Assembly (NCBI GenBank): GCA_965205015.1
Contig: OZ242029.1
Span: 1,216,001 to 1,280,000, forward strand
Source of the DNA: Candidatus Poribacteria bacterium
Lineage (GTDB): Bacteria > Poribacteria > WGA-4E > WGA-3G
Direction of reading: 5' to 3'
DNA: 64,000 nucleotides
Shown: positions 14,065 to 26,623 of the stretch, in pieces
Position numbering within the stretch: position 1 is the stretch's first letter
Layout of the letters: each line of letters opens with the position of its first letter
The notes under the pieces: model-generated
Databases searched by the model: none
Told to the model about the DNA's origin: nothing
The model's input: the letters and a program-made list of their open reading frames with translations, nothing else
Position numbers and translations under genes: made by a program

Positions 14065-15663
14065 ATGAAAGTATCGCTATCAAAGTTTAAGATTTACTTA
14101 GGCGTGTATCTGTTCTGTTTTGTAGCGTTAAGCCCGCATGTAACGGCAGACCAGCACGCTACAGATTCAAAAATTAGTTTTCATTCCCAGATTGTCCCGC
14201 TCCTCAAACGGAGTTGCCAAGGATGCCATCATCCTGGGGATCCAAATGGCGATCTGATTGTGACAACCTACGCAGCACTCAAACAAGGTGGAATGGCGGG
14301 GGATGCCATTGTCCCTGGAAAACCGGATGAAAGTCTCCTCATTGAACTTATCTCCGGCGATGAACCCGCAATGCCACAAAACATGGAACCCCTCTCCGCT
14401 GAAGAGGTCGAACTGTTCCGACGCTGGATTCTCGAAGGTGCACACGACGACACACCCGCTGAAGTCGACGATATGGGCGACGGAAACTATCCGACCTACA
14501 CAGTGCCTCCCGTGGTCACGGCACTGGCATACTCGCCGGATGGTAGCACCCTCGCGGTGTCGGGATTCCGCGAAATTTTGTTGTATGACACAACGAACTT
14601 TGAACGCAAAGGGCGCTTGGTCGGTAAAGCACATCGCATAGAATCGCTGACGTATACGGCAGATGGAAAGATTTTAGGCATGGCAGGTGGCTCCCCTGCC
14701 CAATTCGGCGAAGTGCAGCTATGGGATACCGCAACGAACACACTCATCAAAGCGATGCGTTCCAGCTATGACACCGTGTACGGACTCTCGTTCTCACCAG
14801 ATGCAAGCCGGGTCGCCTTCGGATGTTCAGACCAGACGGTCCGCGTCCTGTCCGTTGAAGACGAGAAAGAACTGATTAAATTCGACAACCACAGCGACTG
14901 GGTCTTCGGTACGATTTTCTCTACCGATGGTTCCCACTTCGTGAGTTGCGGGCGCGATACTGCCCTCAAATTGGTTGAGGTAGATACAGGCTCTTTCGTT
15001 GACGACATCAATTCCAGCAACAAGGGGTATGGAGAAATTAACACGCTCGCGCGGCACCCGACGAAAGATCAGGTTTTGAGTGCTGGTGAAGATCGAATCC
15101 CGCGGCTCTACAAAATCTTTCGCGAAATACGCAGAGATGTCGGGAATACGGATTTCAATCTCATCCAAGCGTATGAAGCACAGTCGGGTACAATTGAAGG
15201 CGTCGCGTTCTCAGCAGACGGTAGCCGGTTCGCGACTGGCAGCGCAGGCGGTGAAGCCCGTATCTACAACGTGGAAGACGGAAAACGTTTAGCAAGCATG
15301 CAAGGCGATGCAGTGGGTGTTTTCGCAGTTTCGTTCCATCCAGATGGCACGCAGCTCGCTACAGGCGGTTTTGATGGAAAGATTCGGATATTTGATACCG
15401 CTACCGGCAAACTACTGGATGCCTTTATGTCTGTCCCGATTGAACCCGCCGGAAGCGAGGATGTCGCTTTAGTCGTGACAGGCATGACGTGAGGGGCGTG
15501 CGTTGCCAAAGTGCAGGATGCACTTACACAGCACCAAAATGTTATTAGTGTTGAAGTTTCCCTCCCCGATCAAGCCATTATTAAAGTTAGGAAGAACACC
15601 ACCACCGCGGACGCTCTTGCAGACATCGTGAAAGCGACAGGATTTAGTGCGAAGGTTAAATAA
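14065..15663 (+). CDS. Planctomycete-type cytochrome c (PSCyt1) + WD40 propeller + C-terminal HMA domain; probable selenoprotein (TGA 15490..15492 = Sec), 532 aa
   Basis: Signal peptide, CQGCH heme motif, WD40 repeats. Frame continues through TGA as GMT-U-GACVAKVQDAL...GFSAKVK to TAA at 15661..15663. Confidence 0.88.
15509..15525 (+). promoter_or_regulatory. Candidate bacterial SECIS apical hairpin
   Basis: aagtgca-gga-tgcactt perfect 7-bp stem, G-starting loop 23 nt after the TGA. Confidence 0.7.
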
Positions 15664-15689
15664 GGCGCGAAGGATACTGGGGGTTTCCT

Positions 15690-16034
15690 ATGACAATACA
15701 GGAACTACAAGAGATTATGTCTCAGCGGTTTGAAGCACAGGATAAGATGATCGTGCAGCGGTTTGAAGCACAGGATAAGATGATCGCGCAGCGGTTCGAG
15801 GGAATAGATCAGCGGTTTGAGGCGATAGATCAGCGATTTGGGGCATTAGAGAAACGCCAGGACCGCATTGAAACGCGTATGGATCGTATGGAAGGCAAAC
15901 TCGATAAAGTCGTGGAACTTGTCGCTATGTTACACGGGGAACGGGCATTTGCAGGCCGCTTTTGGAAGCATGCGGCGTGGATCACGCCAACCGTTATCGC
16001 CCTTGCTGCGCTCATCAAGAGTTTCTTTCTCTAG
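15690..16034 (+). CDS. Small coiled-coil protein with C-terminal TM helix
   Basis: QRFE.ID repeats; 33-bp-period direct repeat 15723..15786; hydrophobic C-terminus. Confidence 0.75.
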   Translation: MTIQELQEIMSQRFEAQDKMIVQRFEAQDKMIAQRFEGIDQRFEAIDQRFGALEKRQDRIETRMDRMEGKLDKVVELVAMLHGERAFAGRFWKHAAWITPTVIALAALIKSFFL

Positions 16035-16052
16035 ACATATAGAGGCTGACGT

Positions 16053-17504
16053 ATGGCTCTCAAGGCACCCAATATCCTCTGGGTTTGCACGGATCAACAG
16101 CGTTACGACACAATCGGCGCATTAGGGAATCCGTATGTGTCCACACCGAACATCGATAATTTAGTGGCGGAAGGGGTGGCGTTCACGCACGCCTATTGTC
16201 AAAGCCCTATCTGTACCCCGAGCCGAGCGAGCTTTCTCACGGGGATGTATCCAAACGCAACACACGCGATCCGCAACGGAAACGATTTTTTTCCAGATGC
16301 GTATCCGCTTGTAACGCGCACCCTCGCAGATATCGGTTATGATTGCGGGCTGATTGGCAAACTTCACCTTGCGAGTGCATACGGTCGGGTGGAACCCCGC
16401 GTAAACGACGGCTACCGTTATTGGCAATACAGCCATGCGCCACGCGACGACTGGGAACAGGGACACGACTACGCCGATTGGGTCCGCACGCAGGGATACA
16501 TTTTAGGCGAGTTGAACCAGAACCCGGAAGGTGTACCAGCGGAGTTGCATCAGACGACCTGGTGTGCGGAAAAGACGATTGCGTTTATTCGCGAAGACCG
16601 GGAGGATTCCCCGTGGCTCGCGAGTGTTAATATCTACGACCCACATCCGCCGTTCAATCCACCACAGACACACCGAGACCAATATAATCCGGCGGAAATG
16701 CCAGAGCCGATTTTCCGAAACAGTGATCTGGAACAGCAGACCCGGCTACAAGCCGTCGATTTTCAATCCAAAGTCCGTACACCTGATGAACTGGACATTC
16801 GGAGTCCAATCTTACCGCAGACCCCGCGTCAAGAAGCAGAGGCAGTCGGGGCGAGAGATGCCAAAACACTCATAGCTGCCTATTACGCCATGATCCAACT
16901 GATTGACGAGCAGTTCGGTAGGATCCTTGAAGCACTTGACGAAACAGGGCAACGGGAAAACACCGTCATCATCTTCACGAGTGACCATGGAGAGACACTC
17001 GGCGACCATGGACTCATCCAAAAGGGGTGTAGATTCTACGAAGGTTTGGTCAGGGTGCCTCTGATTTTTTCATGGCAGGGACAATTTGCGAGTGGACTCA
17101 AGAGTGACGCACTCGTTGAACTCGTTGACAAAGCCCCGACGCTCTTGGAATTGGCGGGTTTAGCAGTCCCGGAGGAGATGCACGGCAGATCACTTCTGCC
17201 GATCCTTCGAGGTGAAGCGGATCCGAACCATCACCGCGATTTCGTCCGATGTGAGTACTACGACGCTGTGGACCTGCCGGATCACACTTTCGCAACAATG
17301 TATCGAAATGAACGTTACAAATTAGTAGTGTATCACGGGCACGAAGCGGGTGAACTCTACGATTTAATTGAGGATCCGGACGAATTTGAGAATCTCTGGC
17401 ATGTCGGTGCGAAACAAGGGGTCAAATTTGAACTTCTAAAACAGAGTTTTGATGCCTCCATGCTCGCCATGGACAAAGGCTCCCGGCGCGTCGGACCGAT
17501 GTGA
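16053..17504 (+). CDS. Sulfatase (Cys-type, formylglycine-dependent), no signal peptide
   Basis: PNILW..DQQR, CTPSRAS..TG, GKLH, SDHG motifs. Confidence 0.92.
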   Translation: MALKAPNILWVCTDQQRYDTIGALGNPYVSTPNIDNLVAEGVAFTHAYCQSPICTPSRASFLTGMYPNATHAIRNGNDFFPDAYPLVTRTLADIGYDCGLIGKLHLASAYGRVEPRVNDGYRYWQYSHAPRDDWEQGHDYADWVRTQGYILGELNQNPEGVPAELHQTTWCAEKTIAFIREDREDSPWLASVNIYDPHPPFNPPQTHRDQYNPAEMPEPIFRNSDLEQQTRLQAVDFQSKVRTPDELDIRSPILPQTPRQEAEAVGARDAKTLIAAYYAMIQLIDEQFGRILEALDETGQRENTVIIFTSDHGETLGDHGLIQKGCRFYEGLVRVPLIFSWQGQFASGLKSDALVELVDKAPTLLELAGLAVPEEMHGRSLLPILRGEADPNHHRDFVRCEYYDAVDLPDHTFATMYRNERYKLVVYHGHEAGELYDLIEDPDEFENLWHVGAKQGVKFELLKQSFDASMLAMDKGSRRVGPM

Positions 17505-23332: not shown

Positions 23333-24778
23333 ATGTTATCGTTACCACAACTCCCCGGACGTTTATGTGACGGGTTCTCACGTCGTGAATTTCTACGTGT
23401 CGGTGGTGCGGCGATGCTCGGCATCAGTTTGCCACAAGTATTGTCACTCCAAGCCAACGCGAATACAACAGTTGATCCCGCCAAGCCGCTCAACGGATGG
23501 GGAAAAGCCAACTCGGTCATCCTTCTTTTCTTACAAGGCGGTCCGAGCCACCTTGACATCTGGGACCCGAAACCGGAAGCGCCGTCGAACATTCGCGGTG
23601 AATTTAATCCGATCCCGACCAATGTGCCGGGAATCCAGTTGTCTGAGACGATGCCGCGTTTGGCACAACAGATGGACAAAGCGTGCCTTATCCGTTCGGT
23701 CAGTTACACACCGGCGGGACTTTTCAACCACACCGCTGCGATGTACCAAATGGTAACGGGTGAAACGCCAGACAAGGTCGCGCCCTCGGGACAGCTCGAT
23801 CCGCCGTCCCCTGCCGACCATCCGAATGCCGCATCGCATATCGCAAACTACCGTCCACCCGATGAACCGATGCTCGCGGCAGTGCAACTCCCGCGCCCGA
23901 TGCAAGAGAGTAATATCATCGGTAAAGGTGGAAACGCTGGTTTCCTTGGCAGAGCATACGATCCGTACTTCCTGTTCCAAGATCCGAATCAGGAGATTAA
24001 CCTCGACGATCTGAGTTTACGTCCAGAGGTACCGCCGGTGCGTCTGAAACGTCGGAAAAACCTCCTTGAGACGATTAACAAAGGGATGCCCGAAATTGAC
24101 AAGGTCGCAGATTCCTACGCTTTGAACGAGTATTACGAGAAGGCGTATAACCTCATCCTGTCGCAGCGGGCACGCAACGCATTCGATTTGTCGCAAGAAC
24201 CGGATGAGATGCGAGATAAGTACGGTAGACACACGTTTGGACAGAGCGCCCTCCTCGCTCGCCGTTTGGTGGAAGCAGGCACCCGTTTCGTGCAGGTGAA
24301 CTGGCCCTCCGTCGCTAACGGCGATCCGAATACTACGGCATGGGATACGCACGCAACCAACTTTGGTCCGTTGAAGAACCTTCACTGCCCGAAGTTAGAC
24401 AGTGCCGTCTCCTCACTGCTGGAAGACTTGGATCAACGCGGTATGTTGGACGATACCCTCGTCTTAGCGATCGGTGAATTCGGACGCTCGCCGCGGATGG
24501 GTATCAGCACCTCCGGTAATAGCAACGCGCCTGATGGACGCGATCACTGGCCCTATTGTTACACAGGTCTGATTGCAGGTGCTGGTGTTAAAGGTGGACA
24601 GGTCTACGGGAAGTCCGATGCAACAGGCTCAACGCCGCTTGAGAACCCGGTGCATCCGAGAGACATCCTCGCCACGGTCTATCATACACTCGGTATCGAT
24701 CCGCACACCATCGTGTACAACCACTTGGATCAGCCACGCGAGTTAGTGAAAGGCGAACCGATTGCCGGGATATTCTAA
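23333..24778 (+). CDS. DUF1501 family protein (Tat-exported)
   Basis: SRREFL Tat motif; GGPSHLDIWDPKP, ARRLVEAG, WDTH, GEFGRSP, GRDHW motifs. Confidence 0.92.
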   Translation: MLSLPQLPGRLCDGFSRREFLRVGGAAMLGISLPQVLSLQANANTTVDPAKPLNGWGKANSVILLFLQGGPSHLDIWDPKPEAPSNIRGEFNPIPTNVPGIQLSETMPRLAQQMDKACLIRSVSYTPAGLFNHTAAMYQMVTGETPDKVAPSGQLDPPSPADHPNAASHIANYRPPDEPMLAAVQLPRPMQESNIIGKGGNAGFLGRAYDPYFLFQDPNQEINLDDLSLRPEVPPVRLKRRKNLLETINKGMPEIDKVADSYALNEYYEKAYNLILSQRARNAFDLSQEPDEMRDKYGRHTFGQSALLARRLVEAGTRFVQVNWPSVANGDPNTTAWDTHATNFGPLKNLHCPKLDSAVSSLLEDLDQRGMLDDTLVLAIGEFGRSPRMGISTSGNSNAPDGRDHWPYCYTGLIAGAGVKGGQVYGKSDATGSTPLENPVHPRDILATVYHTLGIDPHTIVYNHLDQPRELVKGEPIAGIF

Positions 24779-24955: not shown

Positions 24956-26623
24956 ATGCGTTCAAACATCAACAGTAAAATCGCGCTTAATATTGATGGT
25001 GATGCCAAAGTCTCCATCAAAGGTTTCATTGCCCCGATTGAACACACCCTCAGTAACCACCACATAGAGTTCGAGTGGGATGGGTTGGTGAATCTCCGAG
25101 TCACCGCGCCAGAAAAGGAGTATTCGGCATCCGTCTTCCGCGCGTTTCTGCCAGACGCAGCGGTGTCTGTTGGAAGTCCTTGGCAGATTGAAAAAGCGGG
25201 TGTCCTTGAACTGCTGCGGCAACTTCACCCAAATCCAGATTTGGATATGCGCTATACGGAAGGCGAAAATGGGACCCCTGGGTTGTGGGCGTGCTTGCGT
25301 GCTTACACCGATGAATTCGCGGAGATTCTGTTTCGCATTCATGCAGAATTCAGGTTAGGTGATGGTTGGTTCACGCCTTCACAATTTACCGGACATCTCG
25401 TTATCAACCGTCGGGAAGAAAGCGTCTCGTTTTTTCAGATGCGCGTTCCAGAAGGACCCGTGAATTTTGAGGTCGCCTGGCAGGACGAAAGGAATAATTG
25501 GGATGACTCCAACTGGATCATGGATACCGGTTTTTGCTCGCAAATGGAACTCCGTGCTGGGACCGAAGCCGTTCTACGAGACATCACAACCCGTTTGGAA
25601 AGCGCAATGGGCGGTTCTACTACCATTACGCAGAGGGCAGCTGAGCGTGTGTTAAACTGCCAGTTTTACAAATCGGAACAAATCGATTGGGTCTCGATGG
25701 AGACGGCGCTGGAATTAGCACAAACACAACAGAAACCGATTCACGCTATTTCCATAGATGGACCCTTGGCAGACGAGAGTTGCTGAGGAAGTGGCAAAGG
25801 CCTGAGGGCAGGTGCTCTCTCCGACGAACAAAACATCAAATTCTTGAATGAACATTTCATCAATACATGGGTATCCAATGTCGCCTTCGGTCGCACACCG
25901 AATAAACGCGCCTATCTTGCCAAGAGAATCCAGCACGGTTTCAAGGGGGTTGACACAACACACCCATTGGCGCAAGCTATCATAAACGGGTGGCAGTTAC
26001 ACTTGCCAATAGATTCTCTGGTTATCTCGTCTGAACTTGAAGTCATGGGTAGGCAAGATGCCAATCGACTCCACGAAGATAGCAGGGATCGGGGACTCTC
26101 CGAAGCGGAGGGGTACCGCCTATTCTTATCGGAAGCCTTAGCAGGCAAACGCCCTGGGTTGGGTAGAATCGTCCTAACCCCTGAGTGTCCCTCAGTCGAG
26201 ATAATGGACACTTTTCAGACGCCGATGATCCCCCATCAAGACTACACCGTCGTAGAGATTGATACCACGGCGTTTGAAGACGGCGGCACGCTTACACTGG
26301 ATATCGGCGTCGGGAGAGGTAAGGCGGAAGGGGTTTTTTACCTATTTGATGACAACAAAGACCTCCCAACAGAAAAAGCACCTGAAGGCGTATCTACCTC
26401 TGTCTGGGAGCGTCAAGAAGGCGAGGTTTATCTGGCAGCTCTCGATGCCCTCGCCACAGAAGCGGTTTACCCTGAAAAAACCGAAAGAATCACCTACCCT
26501 TTTGACGAAGGTGAGTTGTTTCGCTTGTGTGTTACCGGGAGTCCGTACAGTGCGAAAGGGAGTCACAACGCTTTCAACCTCAAAATCTCCGTAGAAGAGA
26601 AACTGATAACTGATAACCACTAA
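24956..26623 (+). CDS. Selenoprotein N (SELENON)-like protein, probable Sec at TGA 25784..25786, 555 aa
   Basis: Track ORFs 24956..25786 and 25844..26623 are in one frame joined by GPLADESC-U-GSGKGLRAGALS...FLNEHFINTW. Upstream FRIHAEF, FTPSQFTGHL and QMEL match SELENON motifs as I recall them. Confidence 0.88.
25800..25813 (+). promoter_or_regulatory. Candidate bacterial SECIS apical hairpin
   Basis: gcctg-aggg-caggt stem-loop, loop 18 nt after the TGA; possible lower stem gga..ggca / tgc..tcc. Confidence 0.6.

Follow-up and report, generated by a model that had tools for sequence, protein, structure and literature searches.

A 64,000-nucleotide stretch of contig OZ242029.1 from a Candidatus Poribacteria bacterium (hereafter, the window) contains a conserved poribacterial gene that almost certainly reads an in-frame TGA as selenocysteine (Sec), and that is cut short in the databases at this codon. 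Our favoured reading, to which we assign a probability of roughly 85%, is that the gene at positions 14065-15663 encodes one exported selenoprotein of 532 residues, produced by standard bacterial recoding and ending in a heavy-metal-associated (HMA) domain with Sec in its metal site. The parts of the gene that bear directly on this reading are as follows:

14065-15663, + strand: full selenoprotein gene, 532 codons including one predicted Sec codon, then TAA; tblastn matches to residues 1-532 in 80 loci
15490-15492, + strand: TGA as predicted selenocysteine U476, first ligand of the GMT-U-G-A-C site; TGA conservation and TGT/TGC in nine orthologues
15499-15501, + strand: Cys479, the second Cys of the site and partner of U476
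15454-15657, + strand: HMA domain, residues 464-531, spanning the TGA; Pfam PF00403, 34.7 bits
15661-15663, + strand: true terminator TAA; the terminators of the 82 tails compared are TAG (60), TAA (19) and TGA (3)

The initial open reading frame (ORF), on the + strand, has 475 codons, from the ATG at 14065 to the TGA at 15490-15492, and its product closes with ...VALVVTGMT. Past the TGA, the frame stays open for 56 codons (GACVAKVQDALTQHQNVISVEVSLPDQAIIKVRKNTTTADALADIVKATGFSAKVK) up to the TAA at 15661-15663. A preliminary description of this DNA had reported an ORF ending in VVTGMT-TGA and an open frame of 56 codons to a TAA at 15661, which we confirmed in every detail. It had also located the TGA exactly at the first Cys of the GMTCxxC signature of HMA domains, and the Cys of the Pfam HMA consensus does align there. 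With Cys placed at the TGA, the 72 residues around it scored 34.7 bits against PF00403 (cut-off 24.8, E=2.3e-8), so that the Pfam search proposed in that description for the read-through tail exceeded the family cut-off. The TGA splits the domain, with the first beta strand and GMT upstream and xxC and the remainder downstream.

We scanned related genomes at the DNA level, using one genome per species, and kept the best 80 of 240 relatives, 78 of which name Poribacteria in their record titles, the other two being entitled 'uncultured bacterium'. The tblastn alignment spans residues 1-532 in most of these 80. GMT-TGA-xx-C was present in the window and in 80/80 loci of other Poribacteria species, one of them carrying it twice, giving 82 copies in 81 close sequences. 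The codon is TGA in all 82; TAA or TAG, which the preliminary description had named as an observation that would speak against Sec, was not seen in any of them. The residues between U and C vary (GA, PA, SA, GV, EA, VA, AA, QA, GT and GL), with the TGA and the second Cys codon constant. Tail length is 56 codons in 80/82 copies and 57 and 58 in the remaining two, and 79/82 tails terminate in TAG or TAA. Variation in the tails is concentrated at third codon positions (per-site entropy of 0.38, 0.31 and 1.06 bits at positions 1, 2 and 3 in 79 tails), and among single-base codon differences over all pairs of these tails, 48,696 are synonymous and 20,513 non-synonymous. Past the true stop, conservation collapses, with the next 60 nt at 1.65 bits. 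As judged from these comparisons, the tail is translated sequence under purifying selection, and the recurrence of a TGA followed by an open tail is far in excess of chance. An in-frame TGA is thus kept among orthologues with coding conservation on both sides, and the conservation of the tail, on which the earlier proposal had been made to depend, extended to every orthologue examined. We also considered TGA as a reassigned sense codon (genetic code 4 or 25) and rejected it: TGA ends 3 of the 82 tails, and the codon aligns with Cys, not with Trp or Gly.

All public protein predictions examined stop at the TGA. Among 5.8 billion predicted proteins, a word-indexed search retrieved 5,202 matches; the best 120, which were examined, are 439-494 residues in length, and none of them extends over more than 89% of the read-through query. 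When proteins were searched with the tail region, 79/79 matches covered only 41% of the query, namely the part preceding the TGA, and the closing residues G-M-T are invariant in 15 aligned predicted proteins. Full-length and Cys-containing forms were also sought in the word-indexed search, whose best listed matches were all predictions ending at the TGA; the Cys forms described below came from a six-frame search of genomes. RNA-library contigs from two studies cross the TGA (e.g. 15312-15537 and 15384-15594), which gives weak support, as they are contigs of relatives in which DNA carry-over is possible. These matches account for small shares of the sampled words (0.05-0.17) and permit no inference on expression level or translation.

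To extend the comparison across the phylum, we searched 175 Poribacteria genomes in six frames at E≤1e-60, a set that overlaps the 80 loci above and is not independent of them. A match was found in 132 genomes, of which 114 have a Sec-HMA form, 9 a Cys-HMA form and 9 an HMA-less form; 43 had no match at this threshold. The Sec forms comprise 112 genomes whose match reaches about residue 530 and contains a single TGA, and two others (G063 and G067) that belonged to a set of 11 genomes with no stop and a match ending at about residues 460-474, and that on inspection proved to be Sec forms with a longer linker. In the other nine genomes of that set, the protein ends just past the propeller described below and has no HMA domain. 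Nine further genomes have no stop and match to residues 529-532, carrying GM[TS]-TGT/TGC-xx-C at the aligned codon. Homologues with Cys aligned to the TGA, a usual mark of selenoprotein genes, are therefore present in nine Poribacteria genomes, and the exchange of TGA for TGC or TGT among orthologues that the preliminary description had suggested looking for was found in these more distant relatives. Outside the phylum, the HMA-type motif G[MLIV][TSHD]CxxC was found in none of the 150 best representatives of an exhaustive search, the top ranks of which are filled with large multi-WD40 proteins. The Sec- or Cys-HMA extension was accordingly seen in Poribacteria only, within the reach of those 150 representatives.

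We reconstructed a quick maximum-likelihood tree from the haem and propeller parts, with the HMA columns removed and rooted on long-branched outgroups. Its 59 rows comprise 27 of the 81 close Sec sequences, 5 divergent Sec forms, 6 of the 9 Cys forms, the 9 HMA-less Poribacteria and 12 outgroups. The Poribacteria sequences form one clade (SH-like approximate likelihood ratio test support of 96), within which at least five changes among the Sec, Cys and HMA-less states are required. HMA-less clades are nested within HMA-bearing ones, and in one case a Cys form and a Sec form are sisters. Because of this nesting, the HMA domain was probably present early in the Poribacteria clade and lost more than once.

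Downstream of the TGA, a consensus structure computed with RNAalifold from 81 sequences contains a short hairpin of the type of a selenocysteine insertion sequence (SECIS), possibly enclosed by an outer stem:

15509-15525, + strand: predicted SECIS-type hairpin AAGUGCA-GGA-UGCACUU; RNAalifold consensus of 81 sequences
15484-15545, + strand: possible outer stem (15484-15490 with 15539-15545) enclosing the UGA and the hairpin; RNAalifold pairs 1-7 with 56-62, weakly supported

The hairpin begins 16 nt past the UGA, with a gap of 23 nt between the UGA and the loop, and the loop is GGN, with its GG at 15516-15517. In bacterial SECIS elements, the consensus spacing from UGA to loop is roughly 16-37 nt. 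A stem-loop shortly past the UGA with a G in a small apical loop, as expected of a SECIS, is thus present. In the outer stem, pair 6:57 is GC in 58, GU in 15 and AU in 4 of the 81 sequences, and broken in 4. The decisive signal for a putative recoding element is, however, a freeze of synonymous sites. Among 430 degenerate columns, zero synonymous variation is found in only four, the consecutive codons +6 to +9 (AAA GTG CAG GAT), and the five-codon window from +6 to +10, at 0.019 bits (gene mean 1.16), ranks first of 238; the next non-overlapping window has 0.65 bits. By these alignments, the element also tracks the Sec state. The GG of the loop is present in 87/87 Sec copies and in 0/9 Cys copies; the 4-bp core is fully paired in 87/87 and 6/9, and the closing pair 32:36 in 84/87 and 2/9, respectively. 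Pair 29:39 is U-A in 85 and U-G in 2 of the Sec copies, and U-G in all nine Cys copies. Pair 26:42 is AU in 71, GU in 5 and GC in 3 of the 87 Sec copies, and broken in 8. As a control within the phylum, we inspected the selD genes of five relatives: some 17-19 nt past its own UGA, each has a short hairpin that is rich in G+C and has GG in the loop or next to it.

Two loci have additional copies of the domain. One genome (G035, locus L089) has two tandem HMA domains, with motifs about 220 nt apart, each with GMT-TGA-GAC and its own GUGCAGGUCGCAC hairpin. In another (G070, locus L046), a partial second copy lies about 1 kb downstream of the first motif and comprises the last propeller blades and the Sec-HMA domain (residues 340-532, 75% identical, one TGA); it is either a real partial duplication or an assembly artefact.

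The Sec machinery was sought in five related genomes, the two closest of which have orthologues 93% identical to the gene in the window. All five contain tRNA-Sec (78 bits, cut-off 47), selB (340-362 bits, cut-off 242) adjoining it, selA (584-612 bits, cut-off 268) and selD (355-365 bits, cut-off 125), which has one in-frame TGA itself. The context of the latter is KCAG-U-ASKL in all five (G001-G005, loci L103-L107), and SelD is therefore predicted to be a selenoprotein itself in Poribacteria. In a study of sponge symbionts, the passages on Sec report that the orthologous groups of SelA and SelB co-occur in symbiont bins and that Sec machinery is enriched in sponge symbionts (PMC5649159). Poribacteria also appear in a list of phyla with Sec-containing group 4 hydrogenases (PMC13582414). 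Both papers are consistent with the use of Sec in Poribacteria. Because the conserved UGA lies within one apparently translated unit, has a Cys alternative, is followed by a hairpin that tracks Sec and belongs to a lineage with the Sec machinery, standard SelB-dependent insertion of Sec at U476 is very likely.

Upstream of the HMA domain, the predicted product contains the following parts:

14065-14148, + strand: probable signal peptide, residues 1-28, cleavage after VTA; hydrophobic N-terminus
14215-14376, + strand: PSCyt1 cytochrome c domain, residues 51-104; Pfam PF07635, 41.5 bits (cut-off 22)
14215-14229, + strand: haem motif C51-Q-G-C54-H55 (CxxCH)
14512-15435, + strand: seven-bladed WD40 beta-propeller, about residues 150-457; Pfam WD40, 107.9 bits (cut-off 27)

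The PSCyt1 assignment combines a PF07635 score above the gathering cut-off with the presence of CxxCH. Residues C51, C54, H55, M103 and P104 are invariant in 49/49 aligned homologues, and Met103 is probably the sixth haem ligand. Covalent attachment of haem c implies export; the protein is therefore expected to be exported, and its Sec-HMA domain to be periplasmic, like MerP. An AlphaFold2 model built on the alignment of 49 sequences had a mean predicted local distance difference test (pLDDT) of 87.6 and a predicted template modelling (TM) score of 0.77. It begins with a lone helix (residues 2-22) and a low-confidence linker (23-33), as fits a signal peptide, and its propeller region has a pLDDT mostly above 90. 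The HMA part was modelled as beta-alpha-beta-beta-alpha-beta (strand 464-472, helix 477-488, strands 493-499 and 503-509, helix 515-524, strand 528-531) with a pLDDT of about 90, so that the structure prediction suggested in the preliminary description returned a confident HMA fold. The PF00403 score, a GMxCxxC-type site in the form GMT-U-GA-C and the fold all place this part among HMA domains. A Foldseek search with the whole model retrieved WD40 propellers only, the top matches being seven-bladed (e.g. 7bie_A, E=8.3e-27, target TM score 0.92), and there was no solved protein with the same domain combination among the matches listed. A PDB sequence search with the N-terminal 152 residues gave nothing meaningful (E=0.44). 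For the HMA part, the best PDB sequence matches were metal-binding domains of Cu-ATPases, MerP and NmerA; by sequence, Cu(I) P-type ATPases have the metal-binding domains nearest to the tail, which has further matches in CopZ, in MerP and in mercuric reductase (N-terminal domain).

The occurrence of Sec at CxxC sites of the HMA type has already been established by prediction. The table of a 2026 review lists a P-type ATPase with UxxC and the family NF041115 with UxxU (PMC13188914), and a 2022 review is similar in its passage on such sites (PMC9312934). The precedent for Sec-HMA domains that the preliminary description had mentioned thus exists, in the NCBIfam families NF041115 and NF045683 and in that review table (PMC13188914). 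In the Sec P-type ATPase and NF041115, as predicted for the present protein, Sec replaces a Cys of an HMA-type CxxC through standard UGA recoding. The UxxC form is that of the ATPase family, yet the present protein is not an ATPase; compared with NF041115, it has one Sec instead of two, with Cys at the second position in all copies, and its score of 39.2 bits is below the family cut-off of 95. In contrast to both, its HMA domain is a C-terminal appendage of an exported haem c and WD40 protein. NF045683, a MerT/CopZ fusion-like heavy metal transport selenoprotein, likewise joins a CopZ/HMA-like module to another module involved in the handling of heavy metals; the present protein has a different fusion partner and no MerT membrane part (16.6 bits, cut-off 375). 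MerP (TIGR02052; PDB 1afi and 1osd) and CopZ-type Cu(I) chaperones share the fold and the GMTCxxC site, and the likeness to MerP extends to the expected location of the domain outside the cytoplasm. The scores for both are below the cut-offs (33.9 bits against 92.55 for TIGR02052, and 41.8 against 95 for the CopZ family NF033794), and the present domain differs in having Sec for the first Cys, in not standing alone and in lacking mer or cop genes as neighbours. The haem and propeller parts have homologues in many bacteria: PSCyt1-WD40 proteins of about 450-510 residues (P0124, P0126, P0133, P0134 and others), with a homologous haem c and seven-bladed propeller, are 37-53% identical over residues about 30-460, end a few residues past the propeller and have no HMA motif in the 150 best representatives.

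By sequence, then, the protein resembles known Sec-HMA proteins at the level of the site and lies outside their families. What is new is the domain architecture (signal peptide, PSCyt1 haem c, seven-bladed WD40 and Sec-HMA) and the lineage. The fusion to PSCyt1 and WD40, which the preliminary description had called unfamiliar, was not found in the literature searched. The main text of the 2026 review has no mention of WD40, propeller, PF07635, PF00403 or Poribacteria (PMC13188914; its supplements fall outside this statement). The open full-text literature, not counting supplements and subscription journals, gave no pairing of selenocysteine with PSCyt1, nor of selenoprotein with HMA domain. 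Poribacteria and selenoprotein were paired there for hydrogenases only, although supplementary tables could hold a prior listing.

We propose that the UGA at 15490-15492 is recoded through the hairpin at 15509-15525, whose GGN loop would recruit SelB with Sec-tRNA(Sec). The product would consist of a signal peptide, a PSCyt1 mono-haem cytochrome c (CQGCH), a seven-bladed WD40 propeller and a C-terminal HMA domain, in whose metal site, GMT-C-xx-C, Sec would take the place of the first Cys (U476, C479). The selenolate/thiolate pair could, in the manner of MerP and CopZ-type domains, bind a soft metal ion, for instance Cu(I) or Hg(II); we regard metal binding by U476 and C479 as somewhat favoured by the analogy with these domains. 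Sec, ionised and more nucleophilic, might give tighter or faster binding in an oxidising periplasm, where the domain architecture would place the protein. The haem and propeller may couple the metal site to electron transfer, or may serve as a docking platform for a partner protein. Under selenium scarcity, termination at the UGA would yield a 475-residue protein like the natural HMA-less homologues. Overall, the function is probably periplasmic soft-metal binding, possibly linked to the haem.

Several observations weigh against this reading. The evidence for selenium in the protein and for translation beyond the TGA is indirect and comes from sequence comparisons. The stem of the hairpin is near-invariant and shows minimal covariation, pair 26:42 being the only one that changes on both sides, in 3/87 copies. 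Its single-sequence fold energy is no better than that of shuffled sequences (z=0.12), which is uninformative as a test of the hairpin, and Rfam gave no match at gathering thresholds over the whole window. The codons of the hairpin encode a conserved KVQxAL and 6/9 Cys forms keep the core pairing, so part of the conservation of the predicted hairpin is at the protein level. The nine Cys forms trace to about two lineages rather than to nine independent events, and the tree does not settle whether the ancestor had Sec or Cys. The Sec machinery is known from the genomes of relatives alone, and a tRNA scan of the 64-kb window found no tRNA gene. Genomic context gives the putative function no support, the conserved neighbour being a sulfatase gene with no evident link. 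Read at its plainest, the TGA could be a true stop, ending a PSCyt1-WD40 protein of 475 residues and followed by a decaying HMA relic or a separate small ORF (e.g. from the GTG at 15511). Such a stop agrees with the public predictions examined (the best 120 of 5,202 and the 79/79 tail-region matches), with the existence of HMA-less homologues that end just past the propeller and with the three of 82 tails that TGA genuinely terminates. However, a relic would gather stops, frameshifts and changes independent of codon position, whereas 80/82 tails keep 56 codons and vary mostly at third positions. The TGA also cuts an HMA domain into two pieces (the first strand with GMT upstream), neither of which is a domain alone; the codon is always TGA, never TAA or TAG, and is a Cys codon in orthologues; and a constrained hairpin and the Sec machinery are present. 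The pattern of conservation all but excludes a stop followed by a relic, which we consider very improbable.

The other two alternatives accept Sec at this codon. If U-x-x-C were mainly a redox centre, a selenenylsulfide or selenol-thiol couple wired to haem c, the protein would act as an oxidoreductase in the periplasm and not as a chaperone or trap for metals. Passages in two reviews regard most prokaryotic UxxC and CxxU selenoproteins as redox proteins (PMC9312934, PMC13188914). The same polypeptide does contain a cytochrome c domain, covalently attached and with CxxCH and Met-Pro invariant, and it follows from the HMA-less homologues that the haem-propeller core is functional by itself. Against this, the domain is a typical HMA with a GMTCxxC signature, the closest solved relatives of which bind Cu(I) and Hg(II); we know of no redox role for the HMA fold, and cytochromes c with His/Met ligation are as a rule too oxidising for the reduction of a selenenylsulfide. 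We consider a mainly redox role unlikely. The UGA might instead be a regulated branch point, as the preliminary description had supposed, with selenium giving the 532-residue form and its lack the 475-residue HMA-less form, both functional; this extends the selenoprotein reading, with which it is compatible, by a further claim. At UGA-Sec codons in bacteria, termination and Sec insertion compete, the short product would end 17 residues past the PVPI motif of the propeller, near the ends of natural HMA-less homologues, and the repeated loss of HMA in the poribacterial tree suggests that the core works without it. The existence of natural HMA-less homologues makes such a hypothetical selenium-dependent switch between long and short forms more plausible. 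However, the short form would carry a dangling first strand (VALVVTGMT), and lineages with Cys make only the long form, which suggests that this is the selected product; a regulated branch point thus seems doubtful. A reading that joins all three ideas would make the protein a phylum-wide, periplasmic, selenium-dependent metal and redox module of sponge-symbiotic Poribacteria, in which a selenolate-thiolate site would trap Cu(I) or Hg(II) and pass electrons to and from the covalently linked haem c, and the selenium supply would switch between HMA-bearing and HMA-less forms. This combination is speculative and improbable as a whole. We retain as the preferred reading the single exported Sec-HMA selenoprotein.

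On that reading, the annotation of a candidate phylum lacks a conserved selenium-containing metal site, which was missed because the gene calls examined stop at the TGA. The 114 Sec, 9 Cys and 9 domain-less forms in one phylum, with a GG loop that tracks the Sec state, constitute a clean natural series. With it one can test why a metal site retains Sec, how SECIS elements decay once Cys has replaced Sec, and whether the supply of selenium affects domain composition. The uncharacterised PSCyt1-WD40 proteins would gain a first functional handle in a link to soft metals, and the periplasmic haem-propeller context of a Sec site is relevant to the fields of selenoproteomes and metal homeostasis. 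The finding also adds to statements in the literature on an enrichment of Sec machinery among sponge symbionts (PMC5649159).

A second read-through ORF in the window (24956-26623, + strand, 555 residues) has one TGA at 25784-25786, in the context ...PLADESC-U-GSGKGL (CUGSG motif). It lies between a DUF1501 gene (23333-24778) and the gene of an 873-residue PPC/TIG protein, and has no Pfam or NCBIfam match. In five Poribacteria genomes there are up to 13 paralogous matches per genome; of the 41 matches listed, 32 have at least one internal TGA and 28 exactly one, and SIDGPLxDExC-U-GSGK is conserved in the seven copies inspected. By these features, the CUGSG family looks like an expanded, unannotated Sec family. 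If so, together with the PSCyt1-WD40-HMA protein, it would mean that Poribacteria carry a large selenoproteome wholly missed by present annotation.

The most conserved neighbour of the selenoprotein gene is a sulfatase gene downstream on the same strand (16053-17504, +; PF00884, 165.5 bits), present in 74/81 loci. Its sulfatase domain starts at residue 6, a signal peptide is not apparent, and genomic context allowed no functional link to the selenoprotein to be drawn. YceI and DNA methylase genes are found at 48 and 52 of the 81 loci, respectively, and neither mer nor cop genes were seen next to the selenoprotein gene. In most relatives the sulfatase gene follows directly; in the window, the two are separated by an ORF of 114 residues with internal repeats (QRFEAQDKMI...; 15690-16034, +), which is present in 31/81 loci only. 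Contigs from two RNA-library runs join 15662 to 16041, skipping this ORF, which is probably a lineage-specific insertion.

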